Shown: positions 33,219 through 51,956, counted from the first letter of the stretch. The stretch is 64,000 nucleotides of DNA from Candidatus Micrarchaeota archaeon (GCA_038046805.1 JBBSVO010000003.1:83120-147119); one strand, 5' to 3'. The notes: generated from the sequence alone by a model not told the origin. Program-made: numbers and translations.

Positions 33219-33473
33219 GGGCCCGTAACTCAGCTTGAACCTTTTGACTTCTGAAACCTAAAGGCAAAACGTTTCATGTCAAGAACGACGTTTCGTTCTT
33301 GAGCATGATCATGAACGGTTCGCCGTTCATGACATCGAAAAGCCCTTAGGTAGCACAAGTCAAACGGTTTCTGAAATGGTAGAGTGCCGGACTCTTATGG
33401 TCCTGAGTCTTGAGTTTAGAGTCTTGGGATTTAAGAAATCCGTTTGCCAAGGGTTCAAATCCCTTCGGGCCCG
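33219..33473 (+). tRNA. tRNA-Lys(CTT) with 141-nt D-loop intron (17/17a; 33236-33376) and 40-nt 37/38 intron (33398-33437)
   Basis: GGGCCCG/CGGGCCC-G, CCGGA CT CTT A..A TCCGT, AAGGG TTCAAAT CCCTT; BHB TCAG-CT|T GAACC...GGTTT CTGA-AA|T. Confidence 0.9.
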
Positions 33474-33520
33474 TTTTATGTTTCCGGTAGCGGGCTCCCT
33501 GCCTCCGGTCAACGGATGGC

Positions 33521-36223
33521 TTACGAATTTAGGTGATTTTTTCTTCTTGGTGATACCAGCATTACTGCAAATGGAGATAATGAATTTGGCTTAGAATGCC
33601 CTTGTTTACGCGTAGAAAACGAAATTGAATTTTTTCTTTTTCTGGTTTTTTGTTTTTCCGCACGGCTTGAAATTTCCGCACGTTTTGGATTACGTCTTTG
33701 ATTATTGGTTACGCGAAATTTTGGTTTGGTTGGTTTTTCAGCTCTTAAACTGTCTGATTTTGGAGTTTCTTTAGACCATCTTGGTTCTACTCTTTGCGGT
33801 TTTTCTCTTCTGAATGCTGCTTTTTTCGTATTTCTTTTTTGGATTTGTTTTTCCACTTTTTCCGGATTGGATATTTGCATTGTTTTTTCGGATTTTCTTT
33901 TTTCTTTAACAGAACGAAAACGGGATGAAAGCATGGGCCTGACTTTCGCGAATTCGGATGCCGGATTTTGACTTGGTTTTGATCTTCGGCGTTGAGCGGG
34001 CATCACGATTTGCGATTTTGTTTTTCTCTTCACTGGTTTCATTTTTTCAGGTTTTCCGTTTTCCGAGGTTCTGGCTTTTTGTGAATCTGATTTCTGAGCT
34101 GGCGTTCCTGGCATTTTTCTTTCCGGTTTTTTCTTTTCAGATTTCGGAGTTTCTGTTTTGTGTTTTTCCGCTCTCCGAACCACATTTTTCAACGTTTTTG
34201 GTTTTGCATTTATTGGTGCATCATTTAGAGGTTCGAATTTTCTGAATTTTTTTCGTGGGAATTTGTCTTCCAACCCTCTTCGGAATTTTGGGCTTGGTTC
34301 TTTTTTCGCAATTCTGGGCTTTTTACCTGACGACTTGGCTTCTGGAAGTTTCCTGGAGGCAGGTTTCCTTTCTTGTCTAGAGACGCGTGAGGATTCTGTT
34401 TGTAATTTCTGGCGTGGAGTGCGAATGATCGCGGAAATTTGCGGAACAGGAATGGATTCCATATACCTAACGACTTTCGTATGCGGAGCCGGTCGCACGT
34501 GCGGAACAAACACAACTCCCGCATATTTTACTTCGGTTGAGAATTGAGAAGGTTGTGAAATTTGTGAGAGAAATGAAACGGCTTTAACTTCTATTGGCTT
34601 TTCTGACTTAGGTGGTTCCGGTTTCTGCGGTTCCTGCTGGTTCGGTGCACTAAAGGAAAGCGAAACGGCGGGGGATTGAACAGATACAACAGAGCGGGTA
34701 GATGGAAATTCAATCGCTGGAACGGACAATATTGACGAAATAACACGGATTTGATTTTGTTCCGCAACAACGTCATGTTGAGGTTCTAAACGTGGCATCT
34801 GATGAGGTATGGTAAGCATGGACGATACAAAAAAAAGAGAGGATGATGATTTCTCCGAATTGCGCGGAAATTTTGATGGCAAAATAACCTGTTTGGGTAG
34901 AACTGGCTGGGACAAAACGGGTTGAGGAATGCGCGGCTCGGAATACAGTATGTCGGATGCTCGCAATGCTTGCTGAGAGATTGCCGATACCGTTGCCCTA
35001 ACCAAAAACTGATTAAGCAAAGGCCGCTGGACAGGAGTTAATACGAATTGCGGGGCGATAGCTGAAGACAAAAGAGTATTGGGTCCCGGTTGCCGGATTT
35101 CGGTTGCTGGCAAAGAATATGATTGCCCAACCGAAGCCGTGGATTCGCGAGAAGCTACCAGAATAGGATTTTGAGATGCGGACTGAGGCTGAATCTGTTG
35201 GTTTTCAGAAAGAAACTGGGTTCTTGATGTGTTAACTGTTTCTGAAGACGCGGAAACAAACGGGAGGAAATCAGAACGAAAAGAAGATGGAGCAGCACCT
35301 GGAGCGGATTGTACTTGATACGTGTTTTGTGAGCCGCCCGATTGAATTGATGACGAAACTACGGGTTCCTGATGTTGGATGGGGAGCGTGGTTGATTGAA
35401 CCGCGAGATTCTGCAAAATCAGTTGCTGTAAGGCGAATTCCCCGCTTCCTGAAAAATCAATTCCTGATTTTGTCAAAAGGTTGGTTTTGTCAAGCGAGGC
35501 AGTGTCTGTTGTAGGATTGAAGGTTCCGGTTACGTAAAATTGTTCGGATTCTTTTTGCTGGATGAGCTTGGCATCCATACTGTCTCCGTGAGAACTGCCA
35601 CCCCCGCCAATAGATTTAGGTTGCATGGATACGCGCGTATAAACATCTTGGTTCCGTATATTAGCATCCTGTTGAAGATTGCGCGCATCATTCGGAGTAA
35701 AAAATATCGCACCCGGGACAGAAGAAGTTACATGAAGCGATGGTGAAATTCCATCAAACGAAACTGCATTAAGTCGCCTGACAGAATCCGCGTCAAGAAG
35801 GTTGACTGGATTTGGAATATCCGCGGTCATCCCAACATCATCACGCAACAGGAAACTAAATTCTTGAGATCCGGATAGTACCTGCGAGGTGAGATTCTCC
35901 CAAAAAACATCACTGGAACGAAGAACCCTAAAGCACATTTCAGCTGTTTCAGATTCAACACCAGCACCCCGTATTGAATAGAACTGAATCCAGTCCCTTA
36001 AACGAAGCCCTCCGATTTCAACCTCTTTTAGATAATGTTTGGCCATTTGTGCGTTGAATTCAACATTGCAATTCCCGCCATGTTGCTTTACTACGTTCAT
36101 TATCCCTTCTAGAAGCGTGATTCCTTCTCTCACCAAACCGCTTATTGCCCTGCGGTTGCCAGTGCAGTCTTGAACATGAAGTTTTAGAAGAACAAGCGAA
36201 CCAAAACTAGCCATACCAGCCAA
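33521..36223 (-). CDS. Large low-complexity protein (S/Q/P-rich middle, K/R-rich C-terminus)
   Basis: 900-aa uninterrupted ORF. Confidence 0.75.
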   Translation of the reverse strand: MAGMASFGSLVLLKLHVQDCTGNRRAISGLVREGITLLEGIMNVVKQHGGNCNVEFNAQMAKHYLKEVEIGGLRLRDWIQFYSIRGAGVESETAEMCFRVLRSSDVFWENLTSQVLSGSQEFSFLLRDDVGMTADIPNPVNLLDADSVRRLNAVSFDGISPSLHVTSSVPGAIFFTPNDARNLQQDANIRNQDVYTRVSMQPKSIGGGGSSHGDSMDAKLIQQKESEQFYVTGTFNPTTDTASLDKTNLLTKSGIDFSGSGEFALQQLILQNLAVQSTTLPIQHQEPVVSSSIQSGGSQNTYQVQSAPGAAPSSFRSDFLPFVSASSETVNTSRTQFLSENQQIQPQSASQNPILVASRESTASVGQSYSLPATEIRQPGPNTLLSSAIAPQFVLTPVQRPLLNQFLVRATVSAISQQALRASDILYSEPRIPQPVLSQPVLPKQVILPSKFPRNSEKSSSSLFFVSSMLTIPHQMPRLEPQHDVVAEQNQIRVISSILSVPAIEFPSTRSVVSVQSPAVSLSFSAPNQQEPQKPEPPKSEKPIEVKAVSFLSQISQPSQFSTEVKYAGVVFVPHVRPAPHTKVVRYMESIPVPQISAIIRTPRQKLQTESSRVSRQERKPASRKLPEAKSSGKKPRIAKKEPSPKFRRGLEDKFPRKKFRKFEPLNDAPINAKPKTLKNVVRRAEKHKTETPKSEKKKPERKMPGTPAQKSDSQKARTSENGKPEKMKPVKRKTKSQIVMPAQRRRSKPSQNPASEFAKVRPMLSSRFRSVKEKRKSEKTMQISNPEKVEKQIQKRNTKKAAFRREKPQRVEPRWSKETPKSDSLRAEKPTKPKFRVTNNQRRNPKRAEISSRAEKQKTRKRKNSISFSTRKQGHSKPNSLSPFAVMLVSPRRKNHLNS

Positions 36224-36245
36224 TTAGATGATTTGGATTTTTATA

Positions 36246-37136
36246 TTAATCGTTTGGTTCATCTGGATTTGCACGCGGATTTATCTCAACTCCTTCCAGA
36301 TATTCTCCAAGTTCTTTTAGTGCGGCCAATTCTCTTTTTTCAAATTCAATATTATACCCGTGCTCGAGAATTTTTCTTACAAAATCTCCAAACAATGGAA
36401 TTTTTTCAACCATTACATAAAACCAGTTATCCTCTGGTTCTTTGACATTGCCAGATTCTATGAGACGGTCCCCCACATCAACCAATTCTTGGTATTTTGA
36501 CGTGTGTTGGTCTCGCAATCTTAGCTTAAGGCGGTTCAAAAGCACATCCTGGCTGTCATCAAGGAATTGCTTGAACCATGCGAAAGAAATAAATATGCCG
36601 ATACCTGCCAGGCCTATTTCAACAAGAGCTTCGGAAGATTCCACTGCTTCGTCCTTCAGACGCATTATCGTTTCAGATAAAGTACCCTCCAGCAACCCGA
36701 CAACCAAACCAACTGCTGCCGCAGTGCATACTGCTACCCTTAAACCAATGGCGATGTGAGAAGTGAGGATATCCAACCGCGAGTTTAGCTCTGCAACCCT
36801 GAGCGCGAAGTTCAATCCATAACGGTCAATCCACTCATCTGCACGTTTTGAGAATTTATTCCTTAACACTTCCGAACGCCTTTCTTCTGGAGACTGCTCG
36901 GATTCAACAAGGTCATATTTGGTTTTGCCTACAGTTATCTGAGTAATGACATCTGACCCATTATCTTCATCCAGATCAACAATGAGCTGTCGTTTTCCAT
37001 CAGTTCCCGAAACAACTTTTGCCGGATTTGTTGGGCCCTCTGGTTCAACTCCTCCAAATAATGAACTCGCGACGGTTGTTCTTTTTCGCATTCCTGTGCT
37101 TAACGCTGCAAGATGCTGGATAAATTTATATCTCAT
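36246..37136 (-). CDS. Hypothetical two-TM membrane protein
   Basis: 296-aa ORF with two hydrophobic segments. Confidence 0.7.
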   Translation of the reverse strand: MRYKFIQHLAALSTGMRKRTTVASSLFGGVEPEGPTNPAKVVSGTDGKRQLIVDLDEDNGSDVITQITVGKTKYDLVESEQSPEERRSEVLRNKFSKRADEWIDRYGLNFALRVAELNSRLDILTSHIAIGLRVAVCTAAAVGLVVGLLEGTLSETIMRLKDEAVESSEALVEIGLAGIGIFISFAWFKQFLDDSQDVLLNRLKLRLRDQHTSKYQELVDVGDRLIESGNVKEPEDNWFYVMVEKIPLFGDFVRKILEHGYNIEFEKRELAALKELGEYLEGVEINPRANPDEPND

Positions 37137-37162
37137 GTCGCAATTTATGAAGGAAGGGGTAT

Positions 37163-39118
37163 TTAAATCACGGCGCGCCTGCTCAATTCCCTCGCCAGTG
37201 TCATTTGCTCAAATGGCTTCCCTGAGTTTTCCTTTTCAACGAGAGAGGCGAGTTCCTCTACGCCCATCTCCTTTTTCTCCCCGCTCGCCCGCATTGAAAC
37301 GCTTAGTTTTCCGCTTTCGATTTCTTTGTCACCTATAACGGCAACATAAGGAATCCATTCTTTTTCTGCATCGCGGATTTTCTTTCCCAATTGCTCGCTT
37401 CTGTCGTCAAAATCAACGCGAACCAGACGATTTCCGAATTCCGCCAGAATCTTCTGCGCGTAATCGCGGTGTTTATCGCTAACAGGAATAACACGGATTT
37501 GTGTTGGGGCAAGCCATATTGGCAGCATTGCCTTTTTCCCTTGTTTCATTTTTCTTGCTTCATTCTCAAGAAGCGCATAAATAACACGTTCGAGGCTTCC
37601 TGAGATCGACGCATGAAGAATAAACGGCTTTTTCTTAGAGCCATCCTCTGCAATATAATTTATGTCGTATGTGTCTGCATTCTCAACATCTATCTGGACT
37701 GTTGAAAGTGCGCTTGCCTTGTCATTGTTATCTACGAAATTGAATTCAAATTTCGTGATAAAATACGCATAACGTTCCTTGAACAATTCAACAAGAATGG
37801 GTTTCCCCCATTTCTTTACCATTGAAAGATACCAATCCTTGTTTTCGTTGAAAAAGTCCTCCTGAATTCTAAAGCCTGCTTCACTGTCCAAACCCATATC
37901 GTTCATCCAGTCAAGAGATTTGAAAAACTGTGCTTCAAATTCTGCCTTTGCTTGATCAATATCACCGCAGAACGTGTGCATATCCGGCATTGTGAATGCC
38001 CGTAATCGTTTGAGTCCCGCGAGTTCACCGCCCTGCTCGCGACGGAAGCTATATCTTGTAAGCTCGAACATTTTCAGCGGAAGGTGTTTGTAACTAATGA
38101 CCATGTCGTGCGCGATTAGAAATTGCCCAAAACACGCTGCGAATCTGAGGAACAACTTCTTGTCTTCGCTAATTACTGTATATTGGCGCGCGGGAAAGCG
38201 GTTCAAATATTTTTTTAGTGTTGGGTGTTCGTAATCATACATTATCGGGGTTTCCACTTCCATCGCCCCATAGTTCGAACAGTAATCCGTAATCGCGCGT
38301 TCGAGAATCTTTTTGATGAGCCGCCCTTTTGGAAGGAAACGGAAATTACCGGAATCGCTTCCAGGCTCGTAATCAATCAGGCCGTGTTCTTTCATGATTT
38401 TGATATGCGGTGGCTCGGTTTCATACGCCCGGACTTTCTTTGTTTCATAGGTTGCGAATGTTTTCAGGCCTGCGTTCTTCCCATAGTTAAATTTATCCAC
38501 TTCGTGTAGTTTGCCTTCAAGGTCAAAGATATGGAAATGGCTTTTCATTACACTTTCCTGCTTTAGACTGGCGGAAATTACCTCTTTTTCCATTTCCTTT
38601 CCGTCGGTACCAATTCTCGCGCCAATCCCAGCCCCAACCTCAGTTCCGATTCCAGTACCAATTTGCTTTCCGGTATCGCCCTCGGCTTTCAACTCGCGGG
38701 ATAATTCACTTAGCGGATGGCCTTTGCATCTGAGCGTGTAACTCTTATACCATCCAAAAGGAGAATGGTCTGCAGTGTAACCAGCATGTTTCAGCAATCC
38801 TTCTGCCTTTTCAATAACAGAACGCGCAACACGTGGTGCGGACGGCTTTGATGTAAGATGAACAAGCGGATAAAGAAGAATGTTTTTTGCCTTTAACTGC
38901 TTTGCAACATTTTCCGTCTCGCTTGCGAGCTTTTGTGCTACAGATGCAACGTCTTCGTCCCCCTCTTCAACAGCAGTAAACACTACGAGCACTTCCTCGT
39001 ATTTTTGCTTCCCTTTCTTGCCTTCGCTATCAAGCAATTCCGCATCCTTTATTGCCTTGCTAAGCGCCTCAACCTCAATGAAATCCGCGTGTACTGTAAG
39101 TATTCTCATAGATACCAA
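37163..39118 (-). CDS. thrS: Threonine--tRNA ligase (archaeal type with N-terminal editing domain)
   Basis: PFGWYK, CKGHPLSELSR, LRFAACFG, RLRAFTMPDMH, LPIWLAPTQ. Confidence 0.98.
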   Translation of the reverse strand: MVSMRILTVHADFIEVEALSKAIKDAELLDSEGKKGKQKYEEVLVVFTAVEEGDEDVASVAQKLASETENVAKQLKAKNILLYPLVHLTSKPSAPRVARSVIEKAEGLLKHAGYTADHSPFGWYKSYTLRCKGHPLSELSRELKAEGDTGKQIGTGIGTEVGAGIGARIGTDGKEMEKEVISASLKQESVMKSHFHIFDLEGKLHEVDKFNYGKNAGLKTFATYETKKVRAYETEPPHIKIMKEHGLIDYEPGSDSGNFRFLPKGRLIKKILERAITDYCSNYGAMEVETPIMYDYEHPTLKKYLNRFPARQYTVISEDKKLFLRFAACFGQFLIAHDMVISYKHLPLKMFELTRYSFRREQGGELAGLKRLRAFTMPDMHTFCGDIDQAKAEFEAQFFKSLDWMNDMGLDSEAGFRIQEDFFNENKDWYLSMVKKWGKPILVELFKERYAYFITKFEFNFVDNNDKASALSTVQIDVENADTYDINYIAEDGSKKKPFILHASISGSLERVIYALLENEARKMKQGKKAMLPIWLAPTQIRVIPVSDKHRDYAQKILAEFGNRLVRVDFDDRSEQLGKKIRDAEKEWIPYVAVIGDKEIESGKLSVSMRASGEKKEMGVEELASLVEKENSGKPFEQMTLARELSRRAVI

Positions 39119-39172
39119 TCCTTCTTTGCATTTGTTGCATTTTATATGTGAATAATAAAAGATAAAAAAGAA

Positions 39173-39682
39173 TCACACTGGCAGGTTGGCTGAATCACGA
39201 TATCCCTCAACTGGGTGGGATCGCTGCACATATCGCGGGTAATGCCACTGTGGAGAATGAAATCCATACGGAAGATCACGCAGCCCGTATATGCGCTCGA
39301 AATCACATAATTTACTCGCGAAAACCCTAAATTCAGATACAACCACACCGATCGGAACATCCCTATCTAGTAAGGGTAAGATACTTTCTGGTTTCTTACG
39401 ACTTGCATCCAACCAAATCGTCAGGAAACGCGCAAGGTGCGGATTCGACAATGAAATCAAACCATCGACTCTTTCGCGAATTACCTGCTCGGCTTCTGTT
39501 TGGAAATAAATTTGCATAGCACGTGGATTATCTGCATCCGGACAAGTTCTTTTCGGTCTTATCGCGCATTCGAGTGCAAGAAGCTGAGGTCCTTTGAACT
39601 TAAAACTCCTTTTTGTAATGAGCCCGCCCTTACCCCTAACCTGGCATTCCGAAGGAATTCCGATTTTAAGAACTACCACCAT
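39173..39682 (-). CDS. Hypothetical protein
   Basis: 169-aa ORF with GGAGGTG SD-like motif, overlapping the end of the HTH frame. Confidence 0.65.
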   Translation of the reverse strand: MVVVLKIGIPSECQVRGKGGLITKRSFKFKGPQLLALECAIRPKRTCPDADNPRAMQIYFQTEAEQVIRERVDGLISLSNPHLARFLTIWLDASRKKPESILPLLDRDVPIGVVVSEFRVFASKLCDFERIYGLRDLPYGFHSPQWHYPRYVQRSHPVEGYRDSANLPV

Positions 39683-39875
39683 TCAAACACCTCCATATTG
39701 CCATGCGAGATACCTTGCAGATATCAGCTATGCCACGTATGCGATACTCTCCACTCAGATAGAGCTTCCTCGCCAAATCCACCTGTTCTTTACTAAGCGC
39801 TCTTTTCCTTCCCCTGCGCTCAAACCGTCCGAAGTCTTCTTTTCTATTGCCGTGTTTCTAAACACCCTTTTTCAT
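39666..39875 (-). pseudogene. Hin-type HTH gene with in-frame TAG at codon 6
   Basis: Manual translation: MKKGV*KHGNRKEDFGRFERRGRKRALSKEQVDLARKLYLSGEYRIRGIADICKVSRMAIWRCLNGGSS. Confidence 0.65.
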
Positions 39876-39906
39876 TTTTCATCAAATTCACCCCATTTTT
39901 TATTTT

Positions 39907-39964
39907 CCCAATTGAACGGCAAACCGTTCAATGGGCGCGATGAACGTTTCGACGTTCATCCGCG
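39907..39964. repeat. Double-hairpin repeat, family B
   Basis: Reverse complement aligns gap-free with 51957-52014, with compensatory stem changes. Confidence 0.85.
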
Positions 39965-40272
39965 TTATTTTGTTTTCAATTCCAGATCCCGTGACTTGCG
40001 GTCACGATCTCTCGATGTATTTTCTAATACATCAAGATTCCAAAATTCCTTCAGCGCCAAGTCTACCCAAAAAGAAAATTTCAAACAAAAATTCAGATTT
40101 CTTCAAGGGTCGGGCTGGATATGTGGAATTAGCACGTAGTTGTGGTTGTTATGCCCGAATCCTTGCTTGCCATTTTTATCAAATAAATTACAGTTCAGGT
40201 TCTATTTAAAGGTTTGTCACGGAAAACGCGTTGACAATTCCATTTAAATACGTAATGTACCAACATAGAATT

Positions 40273-40761
40273 ATGAAACCATCTACGAAATTTGCTTTGA
40301 AAAACGCGATTATACACCCAAAAATCACGGCCAGGGCTGCATGGAATGCATATATCAGTGAGAAACCATTTTTAGATCGGTTGAAAACCACCCAAATGGC
40401 TTTGGTGAAACTGAGAGAATTCATGTTAGAGAATAAATTTACAAAGACTGAGCAAAAGCATGTTGCAGAGGCTGCAAAAGGACTGGAGTTCATTATTCAG
40501 GTTGGGCACCATTCGGAAAAACCAAAATCAATAGCAATTGTCACGAGAATGATGAAGGGTGTCATGTATTATAGGGTAATAAGAGCAGAAGCCACGGATG
40601 CATTTCCGAAAAGAGTTGATGAGGCAAATAGAATCGAACCGAATACGGCTTTTGATTCCGAGTTTTGCATGAAGGCGAGACTAATCGCTTCTGCCAGTCA
40701 ACAATTGGCTGAAGCTGGCGACGCGTTTCGGGACTTATTCCTCAAGCCGCAATTCGGATAG
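40273..40761 (+). CDS. Hypothetical helical protein
   Basis: ORF downstream of a TTTAAATA box. Confidence 0.6.
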   Translation: MKPSTKFALKNAIIHPKITARAAWNAYISEKPFLDRLKTTQMALVKLREFMLENKFTKTEQKHVAEAAKGLEFIIQVGHHSEKPKSIAIVTRMMKGVMYYRVIRAEATDAFPKRVDEANRIEPNTAFDSEFCMKARLIASASQQLAEAGDAFRDLFLKPQFG

Positions 40762-40889
40762 AATCAAACAACAAGATTTCATGGCCAAACAGAACAATTT
40801 TAAGTCTTGTTAGAAACATTAATACATCGCTGAAAAAACGTTGGAGTTGAACCGAATTTTATGGGTTTATCGACAAAGAGGTGTATCGC

Positions 40890-41978: not shown

Positions 41979-41986
41979 ATTAATTT

Positions 41987-42490
41987 TCACTTCCTTGTTT
42001 TCACATACTTGAACGCATCATGTCCTGCATGGACTTTAACATAATTTTTCACGAACGCAAGAAATGCGCGCGGTTTTTCAACTACTAGTCTTCTATCACG
42101 CACCCGCGCACCAAAACCAAGCCTAATGAGAATCATCTCATCCTGTTTTCTAGGACGCTCAATATATATGAAACCCTTTTCATCAATCCCGCCCGCAGAA
42201 TCAAACATCCCGGCAAGATAACTCGCAGCGTATTCATTCAGGTATTTGAACCGCTCGAGCTGCTCGTCTTCAACATCCTGAAAGAATTTTCTATAAGCAG
42301 TATGATAAAAGTAAACGCTGTCTTGAGTGGCAAGAAGCTTGTCGCTGGTCGTAAGTCCCAGGTCTATTGCATCTTTGGAAAAAATCTCGCAAAAAGAACT
42401 CTCTCCATAAACCCCAATTCCTTCCTTTGTCCTGCGCTTGCGCCAGAAACCAATCACATATGAAAGTTCGGGAGTAAGTTTTATTTTCAT
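41987..42490 (-). CDS. Stand-alone degenerate LAGLIDADG-fold protein
   Basis: LTPELSYVIGFW and SYLAGMFDSAGGI resemble the two LAGLIDADG helices. Confidence 0.7.
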   Translation of the reverse strand: MKIKLTPELSYVIGFWRKRRTKEGIGVYGESSFCEIFSKDAIDLGLTTSDKLLATQDSVYFYHTAYRKFFQDVEDEQLERFKYLNEYAASYLAGMFDSAGGIDEKGFIYIERPRKQDEMILIRLGFGARVRDRRLVVEKPRAFLAFVKNYVKVHAGHDAFKYVKTRK

Positions 42491-42544
42491 GAGATATTCA
42501 CCCAGTATGGAAAATATAAATCGTACTGATACAACATATCAGAA

Positions 42545-42967: not shown

Positions 42968-42992
42968 AAAAATTCCTCTAAATTTTTATACT

Positions 42993-43130
42993 CCAATTGA
43001 ACGTCGCAACGTTCAATGGACCATAAAACGTTTCAACGTTTTATTGGTGTCGAAAATCTCGGATTTTCTCCATGTCGCGAACGACGATTCGTTCGCGAGC
43101 ATGTTCATGAATGCAATGCATTCACGACAT
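42993..43130. repeat. Hairpin cluster: family B-like (42993-43047), small hairpin, family A (43072-43130)
   Basis: CCAATTGAACGTCGCAACGTTCAATGG...; ATGTCGCGAACGACGATTCGTTCGCGAGCATG...GACAT. Confidence 0.85.
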
Positions 43131-43161
43131 CCCATAATATAATCCCCGTACAAACTGGGCG

Positions 43162-45432
43162 CTAAAGATTCTTAATCTTGTTCTTCCAGTCATCAACCGC
43201 TTCCTTGAACTTCGCCCTTTCTACAACCACTATACTCTCAACATCCCGGTATTTTATGAGCGCAAGAACGACTTTCCCCCCGACTACGGCGACGCTTCCA
43301 TATTCATGCATGTGCATTTTCTGTGAAAGGGTCCGCAGATAGGAAAGAAGCTTCACTGCAAGAACGCCAAACACAGTCCCGCTTCCACCGTCTGCTACCT
43401 GAACAACTGTAAGTTTTCCGCTTTTCACTACTGCAACGCCGCGCATCAGATTTTTATCAAGAAGGAGCTTTGTCGCATCCTCTGCACTCATAGTTTTTTT
43501 CTTTATAACGTTTCCTTCAAATGAAAAACCAAGATCCTCGTGCTCTTTTGCATATCTTGAAAGAGCCCATAATCTAAGTGAGGATGGAATTGTAAGAAGA
43601 TTCGAAGCATATGCCTCATTCTTATCACGCAAAAGCGCGGTGATATTATCGCTCCATTTTGGCCAACTCTCCTCGGAAACTCGCTTTTTCTCATGCAGGC
43701 TGTCCATAGCCCCTTCAACCTTCTCAAGCATTTCCGAGATCGTTTTCTTTGCGTAGTTATCAGCCTTTGACAAAAGAGTGTCTATATGTTGAAGTGAAAT
43801 CGTACTTAGGAGATCGTATTCTTCACCTACTTCAAAACCATTTTTTCCGAGCTGGTCCACCAGGCTTTTAAGTTCCCCGATTTTTGACTTAAGCTGAGTT
43901 ACGTTTGCAGCAAAAACATCTTTTTCTTCTTTTATCGCCTGCCCGTAAATGCGCTCAAGCGCATATATTCTGACGAAATTATCCACACTGCTATATAGGA
44001 GAAGCATGCCTGCAGCAACTCCAAACCATGCACCGAATCCATAATAGTCTTCAAAAACGAGCGGAATAAAACGAAGAACATCAAATTCGCTGTCACCTGT
44101 TTTGGCAAGAAATAGAGATATTCCAATGCCAACAACAAACAAAAGAACTCCAAGTCCCGCATCGGTCTTCCAGCGCATTTCGGTTTTTCCAATCACTCTT
44201 TTGAACGCAGCAGTATTATTTTCGTGTTGTGACCGCGCTTTCAATAGATTAAATGCAACCAGCGCCATAGAATAGAAGAAGAGGATTATAATGATCGTAA
44301 GTGCTGTTGCCACACCAAGAGAAATAAAGTAATTTTTTGTGAACGAATGAAACAAATCAAAAATGGCAATGCTCGGTTTGAGGGCATCTGTGCTTATGCT
44401 TTTGATTATTATAACCGGTCTGTCCAAACGCTCAGCAACATCAGAAGGCGCCATTGTAGATGTGAACTCATAGAAAAGAATTGATTTTTTATTTACATAC
44501 GGTTTTATCGTAGGCCAACTGATTTCGCCCTTGTCGCTTTTTATCTGCTGCGGGGAAACAAATTCAGAAGAAAGTGCTGCAATTGAAGGCGTAACAACAT
44601 CTTTTACGATAAGGTCGCTATATACACCATTTTTTACATCTCCTGTGCGCTCCAGTTCCAAAAAGACATAATAACGATAAGATGAAGGTTTCATGCTGTA
44701 TGCGACCAATCTGTCAAGCATTTCGCGGAGATTGTCCGCTCCGTATGTCCCCATGTCACAAATCCCGAACACATCTGATTGGGAGAGCGGATTTGCATTA
44801 ATGGCAGCCACAAAGGATTCTATTTCAAGGATCCGGCTTACCATGTCTGATTTTTTTGAATCAGAAGTTTCCGCATCCTTGAGCGACGGTATCTTGTTTT
44901 GTAGGGAAACAGTGGCATCGTATATTCCGCTGTTTGCCTTGACGTATGAAAGAATGAAATGACCCAGAATGTCAGGATAATCCTCGACAAGCTTTTTGCA
45001 TTTTTGGGAGCTGGATGAACAAAGTTTTGAACACGTCGCCTCATCAAGACATCTTACTCCGCTAAGGCCTATCGCACCGCCACATTCCTTGTCGGCATCT
45101 GCCTTTTCCTTTATGAAATTCTCAAAAAGTGATTCGATCTTGTCTGCATCTTCCGAACTGAGTTCCTTGAGCTGACTGGTTTCCACCGAATATGCCGGAA
45201 CCACGATCAGGTTTCTCCTAACAAGTATATCTGTGTCCTTGAGCCGATATGCTGTGAACGAATAGGTAAGGACATCCTGATAAAAATCGCCTTCTATATC
45301 GTAGGAATTCGAAGATAGTACTATTTCTTTCTTGTTTTCGGATGCAATTTTTTCACTTATGCAACCAGAAATCAACAGCACGGCAACAATGCTGAACAGC
45401 AGCATTACGCGCGTGATGCGCGGGTATTCCAT
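43162..45432 (-). CDS. Large membrane protein (lipoprotein-like signal, Cys-rich ectodomain, 3 TMs, coiled coil)
   Basis: LLISGC motif; C..C..C..C cluster; hydrophobic helices. Confidence 0.8.
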   Translation of the reverse strand: MEYPRITRVMLLFSIVAVLLISGCISEKIASENKKEIVLSSNSYDIEGDFYQDVLTYSFTAYRLKDTDILVRRNLIVVPAYSVETSQLKELSSEDADKIESLFENFIKEKADADKECGGAIGLSGVRCLDEATCSKLCSSSSQKCKKLVEDYPDILGHFILSYVKANSGIYDATVSLQNKIPSLKDAETSDSKKSDMVSRILEIESFVAAINANPLSQSDVFGICDMGTYGADNLREMLDRLVAYSMKPSSYRYYVFLELERTGDVKNGVYSDLIVKDVVTPSIAALSSEFVSPQQIKSDKGEISWPTIKPYVNKKSILFYEFTSTMAPSDVAERLDRPVIIIKSISTDALKPSIAIFDLFHSFTKNYFISLGVATALTIIIILFFYSMALVAFNLLKARSQHENNTAAFKRVIGKTEMRWKTDAGLGVLLFVVGIGISLFLAKTGDSEFDVLRFIPLVFEDYYGFGAWFGVAAGMLLLYSSVDNFVRIYALERIYGQAIKEEKDVFAANVTQLKSKIGELKSLVDQLGKNGFEVGEEYDLLSTISLQHIDTLLSKADNYAKKTISEMLEKVEGAMDSLHEKKRVSEESWPKWSDNITALLRDKNEAYASNLLTIPSSLRLWALSRYAKEHEDLGFSFEGNVIKKKTMSAEDATKLLLDKNLMRGVAVVKSGKLTVVQVADGGSGTVFGVLAVKLLSYLRTLSQKMHMHEYGSVAVVGGKVVLALIKYRDVESIVVVERAKFKEAVDDWKNKIKNL

Positions 45433-45481
45433 GAACAGGGTTTAAATCTTTAGCTTTTAAACCTTTTTGAGGAGGTTGAAC

Positions 45482-46834
45482 ATGCAGGTTTCACAAATTC
45501 TAAAGAGTGTGCTTGAACGGATTTCACCGACAACGACAGAAGTTGAGGCAGAAAAAAGGTTTGCAGAAGAAAGCATGGATAAGCTCCGAAACTATGTTCC
45601 AGACGGAGCGCACGTAATGTTGATGGGATCTGTTGCTAAAGGAACCTTCCTACGCGGAAACATGGATGTTGATATATTTATCCTGCTTCCGAAAACGGTG
45701 CGACAGGATGAATTCGAAAGTATTGCAAAAAGGGCTGCTGCCGGAGCATTTCCCGGCCCGGACACAAGAATCATCATAAGGTATTCCCAGCACCCATACG
45801 TAAGCGTTTATGCAAAATCAGGGGGAGAAGAAAGGAAACTTGATATAGTTCCTGCTTATGAGATAAAAACCGCCAGCGAACGGATTACTGCGGTTGACCG
45901 CACAACATTGCATGTAAAATATATTTACAAAAATCTGAAACGCAGTGCAATTCCAGATGTACGTCTTCTTAAAAAATTCCTCAGGGCAGCAGGGGCATAT
46001 GGGGCAGAAATAAGGATTGAAGGTTTTTCCGGATATCTTTGCGAACTGTTGATAATAAAATATGGAAGTTTTATGCGTTTCCTGCGAGAGGCTGCACAAT
46101 GGAAAGAATCGACTCGCAACGAGAATAAAAAGAATGTTTTGATAATAGACCTTGCGAAATATTATCCACGCGCGCTTTATCCCAGGCTTATTGAAAAGTT
46201 CAAGGATTCTAGATTGATTGTTATAGATCCGACGGACAAAAACCGCAATGTTGCAGCGATTGTTTCCAAAGAAAGCATACGAAGACTATCATTGGTTGCA
46301 CGTGCGTTCATAAAAGCACCAACCGAAAAATACTTTTTCAGAACCGAAAATGAAATAATGGGGGAAAAAATGAATTATCTGAAAAAGAAGAGCGGAAAAA
46401 CTTACGAGATAGTATTTCCTGCTCCGCGAGTTCCCGAGGATGTGTTATGGGGACAATTGAAAAGAATGGCAAAGGACTTAGTAAATTATCTGGAAAGAAA
46501 TGACTTTGAAACAAGCGGAATTGTAGCCGATGCCAATGAGAAAGAAGCAAAAATTTTCATTGGGGTGAAAACAGAAACACTCGGAAAAATACGACTAATG
46601 TCAGGACCTCCTATGAAAAAAGAATTCGAAAAGAACCTAGAGGAATTCAAAAAGGCACACCCTAGATCAAGAATTATAATAAAAAAAGGAAAGACATTTG
46701 CAGAAGTCCAGAGAAGCCTTAGAGATTCAAATGACGCAATTTCAATGTTCTTTAAAACTCGGGTCTTACCATCCCATTTTATAGAAAAAAGAGGAGTAGT
46801 GACGATAAAAAGAATTGGTGGAGGGAAAAAGTGA
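45482..46834 (+). CDS. cca: CCA-adding enzyme (class I)
   Basis: GSVAKGTFL..DVDIF, YSQHPYV, DIVP, AVDRT, GFSGYLCELL, IDPTD..RNVAA. Confidence 0.96.
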   Translation: MQVSQILKSVLERISPTTTEVEAEKRFAEESMDKLRNYVPDGAHVMLMGSVAKGTFLRGNMDVDIFILLPKTVRQDEFESIAKRAAAGAFPGPDTRIIIRYSQHPYVSVYAKSGGEERKLDIVPAYEIKTASERITAVDRTTLHVKYIYKNLKRSAIPDVRLLKKFLRAAGAYGAEIRIEGFSGYLCELLIIKYGSFMRFLREAAQWKESTRNENKKNVLIIDLAKYYPRALYPRLIEKFKDSRLIVIDPTDKNRNVAAIVSKESIRRLSLVARAFIKAPTEKYFFRTENEIMGEKMNYLKKKSGKTYEIVFPAPRVPEDVLWGQLKRMAKDLVNYLERNDFETSGIVADANEKEAKIFIGVKTETLGKIRLMSGPPMKKEFEKNLEEFKKAHPRSRIIIKKGKTFAEVQRSLRDSNDAISMFFKTRVLPSHFIEKRGVVTIKRIGGGKK

Positions 46835-47913
46835 CAGACCAGAAGACGCGGTCAATAGTGATTGTAGCGATTATATTCCTGATAGTACTCTTTGGATGCC
46901 TGCAACAGGCAGGAAATGAAATTTCAAAAGAAAAAGCAAAGGAAAAATCCGGCGAAAAAGATAAGGTCAATGAAAACGAGGATATGACTCCGCTTCCGGA
47001 AATCGGATCGCAAACTGAAACAGAATCACAGACAACGACCGAGACCAAACCACCGACGGAATTTAACCCGAAATCATTTGGCAACCCAAATCCGAGAAGC
47101 GTCCAGCCACATCCCGAACAATGTTGCAATCATCCATATTATCATTATATAGTTAGTGCAGGTTCCGATAATGGATTAAATTGGCAGGAAGACAGCATAG
47201 ACACCGTGATCCGCGACCATGCAAGCGTTCCGGATTATGCAATACTTGACGATGGAACGCACATGCTCTATTTTGTTGACGGAGTTTACGACACGCTTGG
47301 CTGTATGGAATCAAAAGATGGTAAAACATTTGTTGAAGTTGAGTGCAGAATTTACAATTTTACAAAAGAAAAAGTCTGGGACCCGAACGTGGTAAGCATA
47401 GGAAACAGCACCTATCGCCTGTTTTTCTTTTCTCCGGAATTTGAACCAGGGATGGGGCAACCAAATGGGTTTGATCAGCCAAAAAATAGAATATTCAGCG
47501 CAATCTCAAAGAACGGAAAGGATTGGCTTATGGAATCTGGGGTTAGGTATGAGGATATTTCTATAACAGATCCTTCAGTCATCAAAAGAACTGATGGGAC
47601 ATGGTATATGTTTGTTTCACATGGAAATACGATCATCCAGGCCGAAAGCAGCGACGGATTAACATTCAAACGATTGCAGGAAATAAACACAATTGGGGGG
47701 GTTCCGGACGTAACACAAATCAATGGCAAATATTACCTGTTCACGTGTGCAAATGGAATAAGTTACTCGATTTCAGATAATCTCGTGGATTGGAGCAAAC
47801 TAAAAAACGCGATAAAACCATGGGGTGGTGGAGTGATTTGCGACCCAACTGTTGAGAAGACAAATGAAGGATATATGATGTTTTTGAAAAGAATGGGAAT
47901 GAATAAACAATAG
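46831..47913 (+). CDS. Lipoprotein with glycoside-hydrolase-like beta-propeller repeats
   Basis: LFGC motif; SVPD/WDP/TDP/GVPD/CDP blade motifs and SxDGxxW/F boxes. Confidence 0.75.
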   Translation: MTDQKTRSIVIVAIIFLIVLFGCLQQAGNEISKEKAKEKSGEKDKVNENEDMTPLPEIGSQTETESQTTTETKPPTEFNPKSFGNPNPRSVQPHPEQCCNHPYYHYIVSAGSDNGLNWQEDSIDTVIRDHASVPDYAILDDGTHMLYFVDGVYDTLGCMESKDGKTFVEVECRIYNFTKEKVWDPNVVSIGNSTYRLFFFSPEFEPGMGQPNGFDQPKNRIFSAISKNGKDWLMESGVRYEDISITDPSVIKRTDGTWYMFVSHGNTIIQAESSDGLTFKRLQEINTIGGVPDVTQINGKYYLFTCANGISYSISDNLVDWSKLKNAIKPWGGGVICDPTVEKTNEGYMMFLKRMGMNKQ

Positions 47914-47971
47914 AATCAAAGAAAAAACAGAAAAAGAAAAAATTCAAAAAAAATAAAGAAAGAACCCTGGT

Positions 47972-48226
47972 CTACTTTTCCGGCATTGTGATTGCATTAT
48001 CCGTGCTTTCAAACGAGAAATCTGGCTCCTCAATTATCGGAAGCTCATCCTCGCTTAGTTCAAGAGGCGGAAGGGAAGAGGAAGCAGATGGCGTTTTTGT
48101 TGAGCTGCCAGCCACGCCCGAAGCACCCGTTTTCCCAATCTGCCCGATGCAACCAAACAGCACCATTGCAAAGGCTACCAATACTACAACCACAAGTAGT
48201 GTTTTCATAAAAGACACCTTAGACAC
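47972..48226 (-). CDS. Small lipoprotein-like protein
   Basis: LFGC motif, acidic tail. Confidence 0.65.
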   Translation of the reverse strand: MSKVSFMKTLLVVVVLVAFAMVLFGCIGQIGKTGASGVAGSSTKTPSASSSLPPLELSEDELPIIEEPDFSFESTDNAITMPEK

Positions 48227-48232
48227 TGCGTG

Positions 48233-49213
48233 CTACTGCAATACTCCGCCTTCAGGAGGCGCAGGTCCAGTAAAATTCTGACCGACTTCAACCTGTGTGG
48301 CAGCTGCGGCCGGACCTTGGGTAATCTTCTTATAAAGTACCCTCAGTTTTTGTGCTGCATCCTTTAGCTCCTTGACAACAGTTTCGAAATCTCCCTGGTC
48401 ATAAGCTTTTCCAGGCATTGTTTTGCCGGTTACATCCGCAAGCAATGCACGAATACTTTCCACATCTTCGTCGTATCCCATCGCAACCGCACGATCATTC
48501 ATTTTTGAAAGAACTGCATCTATTGAAGCGATTTGATATCTTGCCCAGACATGGAGATGCCTTTGCCTGAGTTCTTTTTCCTTTTCAATTACTTTTTGAC
48601 CATCTCCGGTAGATACAGCATCTTCCAGCTCAGATACTTTCTCATCGGCCTCTGAAACAACATCACTCATATTGGTTGTGTCGATTCCCTTTTCTTTCAG
48701 TTTATTTATCCTCTCAAGCTGTTTTGCTCTCCATTCCTTTACATAATCAACTTGAGCATTCCCTACATGAAGCGCGTTCTCTCGAAGACACTCTGCCATA
48801 GTCTGCTTGTTTTCAACAAAACTCTTCCTGAGAGCAAGACGCATATCCTTGTCTTTTCTGACCGCGTTCTTTACGTCATTATAGGTCAGGACAACATCTT
48901 TACCGTCTTGCAAGAGCAGTTGCATTGCATCAAGGAAACCTTTTCGGTCGCCATTCTCTGCAGCAGATTTCAATGTTACAAGATCCGTACCAATCTTTTC
49001 CCGTAATGCATCAACGCTTATATTGTACTTTGTTCCAAGACCAATGTCTTTTGCATCCTGCAGAATGCCATCATAAAATAAGGCCCTGCAAGCAACCTGA
49101 CCGTATTTTGCGACTAGTACATCGTTCTTGAGTTCCTTAAGCGCACCACCTTGCGCCATCACAAGCATGGAAAGCGCAAAAAACGCAAACACAAATTTCA
49201 ACCCACTGTTCAT
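48233..49213 (-). CDS. Secreted helical/coiled-coil protein
   Basis: Signal peptide from MNSGLK; helical charged body. Confidence 0.75.
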   Translation of the reverse strand: MNSGLKFVFAFFALSMLVMAQGGALKELKNDVLVAKYGQVACRALFYDGILQDAKDIGLGTKYNISVDALREKIGTDLVTLKSAAENGDRKGFLDAMQLLLQDGKDVVLTYNDVKNAVRKDKDMRLALRKSFVENKQTMAECLRENALHVGNAQVDYVKEWRAKQLERINKLKEKGIDTTNMSDVVSEADEKVSELEDAVSTGDGQKVIEKEKELRQRHLHVWARYQIASIDAVLSKMNDRAVAMGYDEDVESIRALLADVTGKTMPGKAYDQGDFETVVKELKDAAQKLRVLYKKITQGPAAAATQVEVGQNFTGPAPPEGGVLQ

Positions 49214-49351
49214 ATTTTTCACCCGCAGGCCAATCGCCAGCAAAATACATTGCGAACCGCCCCTATTTATATAAACTGTCGAAAAACTTTGGAAAAGCTT
49301 TTTTTTTGGAATGGGAGAAGAATTAAAAAGGCTGATTTCCATTCGTATGTC

Positions 49352-50086
49352 ATGCGGACAATTGTTGCAGTACTCTTGATTCTCACTTTACTACATGCTA
49401 CCACAGTATATGGAGAAATTTATGATGGGGAGGAGTTTGAACTCTTAAACAACGCAGTGATAAAGGTATCTGGACTAACAACCCTTCAACTTGTTGCCAA
49501 TGAGAATTACAGTATTGAACTTGAACCGGGAGAGTATCAGGTAACAACGCGATTCTACGAGAATGGAACAATGAAATATTATTCAAAGGACAAAGTAACT
49601 GCAGCTGGAAACGAAACAAGATTTGATATAGTTGTTTTCCCCGTAGATCCGCAACTAATAGATGATTTTGATATAGATATCCCGATACCACATCAACCAG
49701 GACTGGGAGGAACTAACTTATTCAAGAGTGAATTAGACGAGATTCTGTTCCTTGTAGTGATTGCAACTCTGGTTGGAATAATGTTATTTTTCTTACTCAA
49801 AAAGACGGAAAGAACGGAATTGAATTCGGAAAACGGCGAGGGGGTAAAGATACCTGTGGAAAGCCAAGGATTCGAACCAGAGAAAGAGTATGAAATTGAC
49901 GAGGACGGAAAGCGCGTGCTGAAGATTCTTGGTGAAAACGAAGGTAGGATGATACAAAAAGAATTGCGGAACATAATGAATTTTTCAGAGACAAAAATGA
50001 GCCTGGTGATTTCCGAACTTGAAGCATGCGGATTGGTGAAGAGAATAAAAAAAGGAAGGGAGAATATACTTAAGCTTGTAAAATAA
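49352..50086 (+). CDS. Membrane-anchored protein with C-terminal winged HTH
   Basis: Signal peptide, beta domain, TM, then GRMIQKELR..FSETKMSLVISELE..GLVKRIKKGRENI. Confidence 0.85.
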   Translation: MRTIVAVLLILTLLHATTVYGEIYDGEEFELLNNAVIKVSGLTTLQLVANENYSIELEPGEYQVTTRFYENGTMKYYSKDKVTAAGNETRFDIVVFPVDPQLIDDFDIDIPIPHQPGLGGTNLFKSELDEILFLVVIATLVGIMLFFLLKKTERTELNSENGEGVKIPVESQGFEPEKEYEIDEDGKRVLKILGENEGRMIQKELRNIMNFSETKMSLVISELEACGLVKRIKKGRENILKLVK

Positions 50087-50118
50087 AAGATTGAAATAAA
50101 GGAACGAAACGTGATATT

Positions 50119-51234
50119 ATGAAACACACGATTGCGACATTGGGGAGTCATTCCGCGCTTGACGTATGCGAAGGCGCGATGCAGGAAGGTTTTGGCACTC
50201 TTGTAGCAGCTCAACGGGGGAGGGAGAAAACCTATCTCGGATACTACAAAAAAAGAAAGCGTGGGAAGGGAAAGAATGCGGAAACCGTAGGAGTAATTGA
50301 CGAAGTCCTTCTCCTGAATAAATTTTCAGACATCACACAGGCGGAAAAAATAAATTTCATGAAAAAACGGAATTGTATATTTGTTCCGAACCGCTCGTTT
50401 TCCGTATACGTTGGCTATGATGCGATTGAGAACACGAAGGTATTTCCTATACCTATTTTCGGAAACCGCTATCTTCTTAGGGCGGAAGAGCGGGATGCTG
50501 AAAAAAACCAGTATTATCTGATGGAAAAGGCGGGAATACGGTATCCGAAAACGATCAGCTCTCCTGAGAAGATTGACAGGCTTTGCATAGTAAAAGTAAG
50601 CGAAGCAAAGCGAAGTTACGAACGCGCGTTTTTCCTTGCATCTAATCCAGAGGAATATGCAACAAAAAGTGCGCAGCATTTGCGTGAAGGGAAGATAACC
50701 CGCGAAGGGCTTGCAAAGGCACGAATAGAAGAATTCGTAATTGGCGCGCAATTCAATCTCAACTTTTTCTACTCACCAGTTCATGAAGAGCTTGAACTGC
50801 TCGGACTGGACACAAGGCGCCAGACCAACCTTGACGGCCTGCTCAGAATGCCAGCGGACGTCCAGCTTGAGGCACTAAAGAGCATGCACCCGAGAAATAT
50901 AGAAGTCGGACATATCGCCTGCACGATCCGCGAATCATTGCTTGAGCAGGTGTTTGATTTGGGCGAACGATTCGTGGATGCAGTTCAGAAAGAGCCTAAA
51001 TACAAGGCAGGTCTCATCGGTCCGTTTGCGCTCCAATGCGCGATTACCGAAGAGGACGGGAAGGAAGATTTCGTCTGCTTTGACATTTCGTTCCGTATGC
51101 CTGGTTCCCCTGGAACGCGGTTCACACCGTATTCGGAATATTTATTCGGAAAATCCGTTTCGTTCGGAAGAAGAATTGCGATGGAAATAAAAAAAGCGGA
51201 AAGAGAGAAGATGATTGGAAAGGTAACTACGTAA
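50119..51234 (+). CDS. purP: PurP-family ATP-grasp ligase (FAICAR synthetase-like), paralog 1
   Basis: IATLGSHSAL, VPNRSF, FGNR, IRESLLE, IGPFALQ, PGSPG, GRRIAMEI. Confidence 0.88.
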   Translation: MKHTIATLGSHSALDVCEGAMQEGFGTLVAAQRGREKTYLGYYKKRKRGKGKNAETVGVIDEVLLLNKFSDITQAEKINFMKKRNCIFVPNRSFSVYVGYDAIENTKVFPIPIFGNRYLLRAEERDAEKNQYYLMEKAGIRYPKTISSPEKIDRLCIVKVSEAKRSYERAFFLASNPEEYATKSAQHLREGKITREGLAKARIEEFVIGAQFNLNFFYSPVHEELELLGLDTRRQTNLDGLLRMPADVQLEALKSMHPRNIEVGHIACTIRESLLEQVFDLGERFVDAVQKEPKYKAGLIGPFALQCAITEEDGKEDFVCFDISFRMPGSPGTRFTPYSEYLFGKSVSFGRRIAMEIKKAEREKMIGKVTT

Positions 51235-51282
51235 AATAAGGTAAGTGAACTACCCACGGCTGAAGCCGTGGGCTTCCACGAC

Positions 51283-51756
51283 TCAAAAGAAAGCAGATAG
51301 TTGCGCCTGTTTTGCTTCCTCCCTTGCGTCGTAAATTGACTGGTTTAATTCCTTGAACTTATGCCCTTCAATGTAATGCCCTATGGTATCTGATTTTACG
51401 TTGCTTATGCTCCTGCAAAACTTTCCGGGAGACCAGAAATGTCCTTTCCCGAATACGTTTCTCAGCCATGGAAAAGCGGCAAAAACCGAATGGCTTGACC
51501 TGCCCTTGAAAAGCCTCATGGCTTCTGACGGACTCGTATTGAATGGCAGGGAAACGAAAAGATGCACGTGCTCGGAGGCAATTTCCATGGAGTGAATCAA
51601 AATATTGTATTGGTGGGCAGTGTTAATTATGCTCTGCCACAAAAACCGTTTCACATCACCAACCATTACTGCTTTTCTGTATTTCGGGCACCACTCAAGA
51701 TGAAACTGATTTAAACCCACGCTCCTATTACTTGATACAAAGCTTACGCTAGTCAT
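51283..51756 (-). CDS. tnpA: IS200/IS605 Y1 HUH transposase
   Basis: HLEWCPKYRK, HUH motif EHVHL, FKGRSS, FWSPG, catalytic YIEGH. Confidence 0.95.
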   Translation of the reverse strand: MTSVSFVSSNRSVGLNQFHLEWCPKYRKAVMVGDVKRFLWQSIINTAHQYNILIHSMEIASEHVHLFVSLPFNTSPSEAMRLFKGRSSHSVFAAFPWLRNVFGKGHFWSPGKFCRSISNVKSDTIGHYIEGHKFKELNQSIYDAREEAKQAQLSAFF

Positions 51757-51777
51757 TTCAACAACTCCGTAGCCGTC

Positions 51778-51837
51778 TTGTCAAGAACGACGAATCGTTC
51801 TTGATCATGCTCGTGAACGAAACGTCGTTCACGACAT
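51778..51837. repeat. Double-hairpin repeat, family A
   Basis: Reverse complement is 51/60 identical to 33276-33335 inside the tRNA-Lys intron. Confidence 0.9.
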
Positions 51838-51956
51838 CTCTTGGAAGGTTGTGCGCCGCCTGCGGCGGCGCGCCGGCTACAGGGCATAAAAACAGTGAAA
51901 AAATAAGAAGAAAACGAATTTTTGACATAAAAAAAGAAGGGGGTCGCTTTCATCTA

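Follow-up and report, generated by a model that had tools for sequence, protein, structure and literature searches.

We analysed a 64,000-nucleotide (nt) stretch of DNA, here called the window, from Candidatus Micrarchaeota archaeon (GCA_038046805.1 JBBSVO010000003.1:83120-147119), in which copies of a short double-hairpin element lie in introns of transfer RNA (tRNA) genes, in intergenic DNA and in the leader of tnpA, the gene for an IS200-type transposase. Coordinates are counted from the first letter of the window. The element is referred to as type 1, the source genome (1.2 Mb, 86% complete) as G000 and a congener as G001; C-numbers denote contigs. An earlier reading of the sequence (the original prediction) had proposed that hairpins and TnpA form an archaeal system like that of the bacterial repetitive extragenic palindromic (REP) sequences and their paired form, the REPIN, with TnpA spreading the hairpins. 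A covariance model of type 1, called R1, was built from 11 copies in G000. The copies in the window are as follows.

33276..33335, plus strand: type-1 double hairpin at the tip of the tRNA-Lys D-loop intron (R1 84.4 bits, E 5.8e-20)
51778..51837, minus strand: type-1 double hairpin in the leader of the insertion sequence (R1 81 bits), 21 nt before the tnpA ATG
43070..43132, plus strand: intergenic type-1 double hairpin (R1 77.7 bits, E 3.8e-18; the orthologous spacer of G001 is without a copy)
14813..14870, plus strand: diverged double hairpin in tRNA-Thr, at the tip of its D-loop intron (R1 35.4 bits, E 1.6e-6; fold)
8954..8976, no strand assigned: single GAACG..CGTTC hairpin (regular-expression match; partial R1 match, E 0.065)

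Structure and dispersal of the double hairpin

The 60-mer in the tRNA-Lys intron (33276-33335) and the reverse complement of that beside tnpA (51778-51837) align without gaps at 51 of 60 positions. Because type 1 is nearly palindromic, 49 of 60 positions also agree on the same strand. The nine differences fall at positions 6, 7, 24, 25, 37, 43, 48, 54 and 60; eight of them make up four double-sided compensatory pairs in both stems, and the ninth breaks the terminal A-T pair. On these points the original prediction is borne out, as it is for the hairpin 21 nt upstream of tnpA. The further copies it had listed, at 43072-43130, in the tRNA-Thr intron (~14815-14870, diverged) and as a single hairpin at 8954-8975, are real as well, at boundaries that differ by a few nucleotides at most.

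Each type-1 copy consists of two inverted units of ~30 nt, each with its own stem-loop: (A/G)TGTC-stem-loop-stem-GAGCAT followed by ATGNTC-stem-loop-stem-GACAT. This is a REPIN-like architecture of two inverted palindromic units, with termini ATGTC/GACAT. The unpaired centre, GAGCATGNTC, is common to 35 full-length copies from several genomes. Copies are 58-60 nt long, and the unit that differs between genomes measures 58 nt and abuts or duplicates an AT. The structure was tested on the 11 aligned G000 copies as a three-way junction in which two 9-bp hairpins are joined to an outer ATGT/ACAT helix. Pairing was found in 90.3% of the cells of the alignment, against 80.3 +/- 1.3 in shuffled alignments (0/500 shuffles as high) and only 20-45% in slid controls, and 10 of the 22 pairs showed changes on both sides. 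In the whole G000 genome there are 85 hairpins of the GAACG..CGTTC kind, compared with 16-25 in each of five shuffles.

R1 detected 19 loci in G000 at E<1e-3, the 11 model-building copies included. Of the 41 genomes in the taxonomic family, 21 had matches, representing 15 of 23 genera, and the number of matches reached 58 per genome with both strands taken together (G001, the highest among the relatives searched). Copies in G000 are intergenic or intronic and lie mostly just 3' of stop codons on a crude map of open reading frames (ORFs). The settings of type 1 comprise spacers after genes, the tips of rod-shaped tRNA introns, the arms and loops of other hairpin elements, and one IS200-like leader.

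Readings of type 1 as a C/D-box guide RNA (no D box at the 3' end) or as an H/ACA guide RNA (stems without a pseudouridylation pocket), and of its boundaries as a bulge-helix-bulge 'mini-intron' (flanks rarely pair), were dropped by eye. A pattern scan of viral_contigs gave a single weak match (21.6 bits) inside the tail-protein ORF of a high-GC phage contig, which was judged to be due to chance.

Host introns and orthologous filled and empty sites

Two tRNA genes of the window carry the element in their D-loop introns.

33219..33472, plus strand: tRNA-Lys(CUU) gene with introns in the D-loop and the anticodon loop (acceptor/T-arm finder; in-silico intron removal)
33235..33376, plus strand: D-loop intron of tRNA-Lys, 142 nt, of the 'CCTTTTGAC...' family, with a rod fold (minimum-free-energy fold: hairpin pair at the rod apex)
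14760..15047, plus strand: tRNA-Thr(CGU) gene with D-loop and anticodon-loop introns (acceptor/T-arm finder)

The D-loop intron of tRNA-Lys in G000 is exactly 58 nt longer than its orthologue in G001, whose empty tip reads ..ACGTTTCATCGAAAAG.. / ..GGCAAAACGTTTCATCGAAAAGCC.., and the same empty tip is found in paralogous G000 introns of the tRNA-Lys intron family. The filled tip has AT (or CAT) at both junctions, one AT of the empty tip becoming two. The copy most similar to that in tRNA-Lys (93% identity) is found in G001, at a different locus. Differences in the opposite direction also exist: eight type-1 sites are filled in G001 and empty in G000, usually as composite blocks of 100-270 nt. 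Where G000 has a 200-nt hairpin cluster (42969-43168), G001 has 34 nt instead. Among the 35 full-length copies, 25 start with AT and 8 with GT, and 28 end with AT. Type 1 is also found within itself, since in genomes G045 and G042 a copy lies within the 3' arm of another copy's hairpin and removal of 58 nt restores CG-AT-(T/C)AC, one AT having again become two, though these two nestings may stem from one event. In G001, two type-1 copies occupy loops of TTGAACGG..CCGTTCAA hairpins.

When both intervening segments of tRNA-Lys were removed in silico, ARAGORN made a tRNA call for 1421 of the 1575 boundary variants, and tRNA-Lys(ctt) was the call in 105 of these, which upholds the reading of the host gene as tRNA-Lys. 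An ORF for the splicing endonuclease EndA (401 aa, 82.8 bits) is present in G000. With exons that restore a tRNA and a splicing endonuclease in the genome, the segments of tRNA-Lys are probably archaeal protein-spliced introns. The D-loop introns of tRNA-Lys and tRNA-Thr both take a rod-shaped fold that carries the hairpin pair at its apex, and the empty tRNA-Lys intron of G001 folds as the same rod closed by a small loop. The idea that hairpins are tolerated in tRNA genes through splicing is supported by this apical position and by the EndA frame. Counted by hand, 7 of the 85 GAACG-type hairpins fall in 6 of the 18 G000 tRNA genes that could be delimited, and these genes amount to 3.4 kb, or 0.28% of the genome. 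For ARMAN-2, the available text of PMC3239211 describes a three-unit splicing endonuclease of broad specificity as well as tRNAs that are heavily interrupted.

Introns related to 'CCTTTTGAC...' occur in at least 9 tRNA genes of G000. The family, CCTTTTGAC..CTGAAACC..GGCAAAACG.., has members in the D-loop of at least 7 tRNA genes, and additional genes hold it at other positions; examples are 14777-14890 and 33235-33376 in the window, C6:233011-233187 and C8:6536-6722. The G001 tRNA-Lys gene (L058, C20; aligned to window positions 33440-33470) has an extra T-loop intron of 79 nt that G000 does not have, so that an entire intron separates the congeners in addition to the 58-nt hairpin. In tRNA-Thr, introns are found at the same D-loop and anticodon-loop positions in G000 and G001 (L073, C95), with unrelated sequences and lengths (~140 nt versus ~40 nt for the D-loop intron).

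The tRNA-Lys gene was not detected by ARAGORN at default settings or at Rfam gathering thresholds. Default ARAGORN reported one tRNA in the window, and Rfam gave only 4 matches above cut-off in the 1.2 Mb of G000. With introns allowed, ARAGORN made 9 calls, which were partly wrong, and an acceptor/T-arm finder was used instead. Counts of tRNA genes by standard finders are badly underestimated for such genomes.

The tnpA insertion sequence

The copy beside tnpA lies inside an insertion sequence (IS) with the following parts.

51245..52086, minus strand: IS200-like, tnpA-only IS of ~842 bp (its ends are found again at contig ends; empty site in G001)
51283..51756, minus strand: tnpA, 157-aa HUH/Y1 transposase (PF01797, E 3.5e-29; ATG at 51756)
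51253..51272, minus strand: right-end subterminal hairpin CCC-ACGGC-TNAA-GCCGT-GGG, 7-8 nt from the end ..TAGTTCAC
51853..51873, minus strand: G+C-rich leader hairpin, a conserved part of the leader in the IS family (found in 4 homologous leaders)
51957..52014, minus strand: type-2 hairpin pair within the IS left end (not in the left end of the tnpB element, nor in the IS of G005 and G006; G020 has a pair at the same place)
52012..52031, minus strand: IS left-end hairpin ACGGC-TTTA-GCCGT, which shares its core with the right-end hairpin

The leader before the tnpA ATG is conserved in this IS family as ..GTAGCAGGCGCGCTGCC..GGCAGCGCACAAATTTCCAAGAG followed by A.A.C.GCTACGGAG..., and the G000 60-mer stands exactly between these two parts. 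In all four comparable leaders (G005, G006, G020 and G001:C97) the site is empty, ..TTTCCAAGAG passing directly into A(A/G)A.C.GCTAC... A role of the hairpin as the left end of the IS is ruled out by these empty leaders. Because the homologous leaders are empty and the end hairpins of the IS are different, the hairpin beside tnpA is best regarded as a secondary insertion that has since been carried along by the IS. The partnership with TnpA proposed in the original prediction gives way, to a large extent, to the chance insertion at tnpA which that prediction had itself named as the contrary outcome. In a BLAST search of the IS against G000, type-1 copies were matched only through the inserted copy (IS positions 535-594), and the type-1 hairpin lies on one side of tnpA only.

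Both IS ends carry ACGGC-TTNA-GCCGT, and all four occurrences of this hairpin in G000 are at IS ends. The right-end hairpin and ..TAGTTCAC are kept, with compensatory changes, in the IS of G005, G038, G020, G006 and G045 and in a tnpB element of G000. The latter, a stand-alone element at C6:9910-11208 with a 432-codon frame, has the same left and right ends as the tnpA IS; since the two have common ends, G000 holds a partner pair of IS200 type and IS1341 type. As far as sequence can tell, these shared ends are most likely the ones on which TnpA works. The terminal sequences themselves differ (ATTTAGTCGAGG... versus ...GGGTAGTTCAC), and the boundaries are placed to within a few nucleotides from two copies.

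TnpA scored 103.2 bits against NF033573 transpos_IS200 (cut-off 55) and 22.7 bits, below threshold, against NF047646, the REP-associated tyrosine transposase (RAYT; cut-off 80). The family placement that had been suggested as a check thus comes out as IS200 and not RAYT. Its best PDB relatives are 2ec2, 2f4f, 2xm3 and 2a6m, and all PDB matches are IS200/IS605 TnpAs. A HUH/Y1 transposase of ~150 aa, together with subterminal hairpins at both ends that are conserved among relatives, agrees with the IS200/IS605 family. The motifs EHVH and YIEGH are visible in the translation. The tyrosine motif YIEGH (residues ~127-133) has His where the signature Y[IV]ENQ, as given in the available text of PMC6006769, has Gln; His is also found at this position in the G005 homologue, and Gln in those of G038, G020 and G006. 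So far as the same text goes (Quentin et al. 2018, PMC6006769), IS200 subclass 1.1 is the only subclass of Y1 transposases seen in Archaea.

The IS is present in at least two copies, its ends recurring at the contig ends C11:1-55 (100%) and C3:1-66 (98.5%). In the C3 copy, homology resumes past a variable patch of ~20 nt and runs to ~52086. The empty site in G001 lies between purP and a membrane-protein gene. Compared with G001, that downstream membrane-protein gene (window 52038-52391) has had its 5' end replaced by the IS, and its frame in G000 begins in IS-derived sequence. A Logan unitig over 51245-52020 has a depth of 12, against 6.7-7.5 alongside, and no branch at the hairpin; roughly doubled depth without a branch is consistent with both IS copies carrying the type-1 hairpin. 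An RNA-library contig covers 51188-51716, for which DNA carry-over is possible.

Other hairpin modules occur mixed and nested with type 1, namely type-2 and type-3 hairpin pairs and a ACTGAACC..GGTTCAGT element. Two of them in the window stand outside the IS.

39907..39964, no strand assigned: solo type-2 hairpin pair (CCC-hairpin-GGG then CGC-hairpin-GCG), with the architecture of the pair inside the IS left end
42993..43050, no strand assigned: type-3 hairpin pair (CCAATTGAACG..CGTTCAATGG-ACC-ATAAAACG..CGTTTTAT) in the 42969-43168 cluster

The type-3 module is also written CCAATTGAACG..GGACC..ATAAAACG... At several loci of G001 (L027, L049, L057), type-1 copies are immediately adjoined by yet another element, whose termini are ATACTGAACC..GGTTCAGTAT. 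A 57-nt unit with a GTGAACGAAACGTCGTTCAC hairpin forms head-to-tail repeats across two contig ends of G000, C7:137180-137237 and C8:1-114.

Probable mobility of the element and the possible part of TnpA

Several known systems resemble type 1 in part. With bacterial REPIN/RAYT systems (Bertels & Rainey 2011, PMC3116915; Nunvar et al. 2010, PMC2817692) it shares short extragenic palindromes in inverted pairs, dispersal in spacers, kept structure and persistence in a lineage. It differs from them in that G000 has no protein of the RAYT clade, its sole Y1 gene being that of a multi-copy IS200 with different ends, and in that repeat and transposase are not co-inherited. There are ~19 loci in G000 rather than hundreds, the typical REPIN copy number being above 100 per genome. 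A RAYT gene is single-copy, immobile and flanked by its own REPs, whereas this tnpA lies in a mobile IS of ~842 bp that has a second copy, with the hairpin on one side.

Palindrome-associated transposable elements (PATEs) are palindrome-associated, non-autonomous derivatives of IS200/IS605 elements and carry the hairpins of the parent IS. Like the IS200/IS605 family and PATEs, type 1 is based on hairpins and is without long terminal inverted repeats, and tnpA-only and tnpB-only IS with common ends are at hand in G000. Unlike in a PATE, however, its hairpins, loops and termini are not those found at the resident IS ends. Among MITEs (miniature inverted-repeat transposable elements), those of Tc1/IS630 type duplicate a 2-bp TA target, and some insertion sequences target the palindromes of REPs or of bacterial interspersed mosaic elements. 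Type 1 shares with TA-duplicating MITEs and REP-targeting IS its short inverted termini, the dinucleotide repeats at both junctions and the nesting in palindromes; in contrast to Tc1/IS630-type MITEs, its dinucleotide is AT and not TA, and neither DDE_3 nor DDE_Tnp_1 was found in G000.

The closest published parallel is in Thermoproteales, in which families of tRNA introns have been transposed among genes (Fujishima et al. 2010, cited through the available text of the review PMC4090602). There, as here, a single intron family is spread over numerous tRNA genes and positions, with turnover from one close relative to another (PMC4090602). The present case differs in that a separate 58-nt element lands in an existing intron, lies outside tRNA genes as well and is not bounded by splice motifs. 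Within the part of the literature open to full-text search, no published description of these Micrarchaeota hairpin repeats was found.

We consider it probable that type 1 is a mobile hairpin-pair element of a MITE/REPIN-like kind, and that its neighbourhood with tnpA is a secondary insertion and not a sign of partnership. The broad features of a MITE are there: it is short, non-coding, multi-copy, has inverted termini, and is present or absent at orthologous sites. The element would move as DNA, by cut- or copy-and-paste, next to AT dinucleotides, and may prefer DNA that is able to extrude as hairpins. In tRNA genes it would be harmless, being placed at the apex of the intron, well away from the splice junctions, and removed together with it. 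The transposase of the tnpA IS, for its part, is a classical IS200/IS605 enzyme, whose cognate ends would be CCC-ACGNN-TTNA-NNCGT-GGG...TAGTTCAC, unlike type 1. What survives of the REP/REPIN-like system first proposed is an element that is repeated, conserves its structure and appears as an insertion or deletion between relatives; TnpA as its driver does not.

A number of observations weigh against this reading. Insertion/deletion differences and the similarity of copies are the sole grounds on which type 1 may be called mobile. Since AT is palindromic, a 2-bp duplication, an AT owned by the element and a Y1-type insertion 3' of AT are indistinguishable. Most differences between G001 and G000 are composite (100-270 nt), and clean target-site data come from few events. 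Logan contigs of four runs, which drop rare variants, contained no joint skipping the hairpin or the IS over 33000-52400. With regard to tnpA, a type-1 copy was nearby in only 3 of 18 Y1 loci examined with their flanks, yet these three do exist (in the G000 leader, ~330 nt upstream in G001:C97 and 22 nt past the right end in G045). By its stem, the hairpin ATGAACGG..CCGTTCAT in the left end of the IS belongs to one family with the type-1 arms. A search of G000 for five transposase families detected Y1 TnpA and TnpB and no others, which makes a link to TnpA possible; DDE_3, DDE_Tnp_1 and Resolvase (serine recombinase) gave no match in this 86% complete genome, and rve, IS110, IS1595, IS66, Mutator and casposase were not searched.

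These last three points count in favour of a different explanation, to which we give a small but real chance, namely that the IS200-type Y1 TnpA recognises GAACG-type hairpins in single-stranded DNA (ssDNA) and mobilises hairpin pairs in trans, as an archaeal analogue of REPIN/RAYT or a PATE-like partner. Y1 HUH enzymes such as those of IS608 and ISDra2 do act on ssDNA hairpins (PMC6006769, in the text available), and the two hairpins of type 1 are like a minimal left end plus a right end. Y1 genes are also somewhat commoner in hairpin-bearing relatives, 8 of 20 against 4 of 20 hairpin-free ones, a difference with Fisher p=0.30 among related genomes that are not independent. The co-occurrence that the original prediction called for is not apparent in these figures, nor in the hairpin-rich relatives (at least 14 matches, n=10), five of which (G009, G016, G042, G048 and G049, with 15-29 R1 matches) gave no Y1 match, an absence that is unproven in genomes 71-93% complete (G049 93%). 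G001, the richest genome, has as its only Y1 match a frame with a stop shortly past the HUH motif. Conversely, G005, G006, G010, G023 and G055 have Y1 genes and 0-2 R1 matches (none in G010, G023 and G055). The relatives in this comparison are 71-95% complete and IS are often missing from metagenome bins; the pattern weighs against a dependence of type 1 on Y1 without excluding it. Further against mobilisation by TnpA stand the insertion into a leader that is empty in four of four homologues, the ends common to the tnpA and tnpB elements, which have another hairpin, loop and flanks and a hairpin that is not dispersed, the type-1 termini, which are unlike those of the IS, and the scoring of the protein as IS200 instead of RAYT.

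It is also conceivable, though we regard it as quite improbable, that the hairpin pair is immobile: a structural module selected by the host, such as a stabiliser or terminator at RNA 3' ends or a protein-binding site, copied by local duplication or recombination and lost by deletion between short repeats. Compensatory changes that keep the structure, persistence over 15 genera and the location of most intergenic copies ~10-150 nt after a stop codon (on the crude ORF map) would fit such a module. The 58-nt unit is found, however, in contexts as unrelated as an intron tip, an IS leader and the inside of other copies, its presence differs between congeners at orthologous sites, nested copies interrupt the stems that would be the functional unit, and half of the related genomes are without any copy. 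A chance resemblance of unrelated inverted repeats, for which nothing speaks beyond the low complexity of palindromes, is hardly credible in view of R1 E-values down to 1e-20, the failure of all 500 shuffles to reach the observed pairing and the 35 copies with the same centre.

Returning to type 1 as a mobile element inserted secondarily beside tnpA, the case carries a caution, in that a repeat beside a transposase gene is no evidence of partnership unless homologous elements have it too. A broader proposal would be that Micrarchaeota carry self-nesting hairpin-pair replicators which integrate next to AT in hairpin-extruding DNA (intron tips, arms of copies, IS leaders) and are moved in trans by the IS200-type Y1 transposase, the one transposase detected in G000 besides TnpB. 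We hold this to be unlikely; if true, Archaea would have their first REPIN-like system, and tRNA introns a direct source of growth and turnover. The mechanism by which archaeal tRNA introns spread is called unknown in the available text of the review PMC4090602. In the present case, one and the same tRNA intron holds a defined 58-nt unit at its tip in one species and is without it in the congener. Intron growth thus has a concrete substrate that can be put to the test, in ~1-Mb genomes from which repeats would be expected to be purged.

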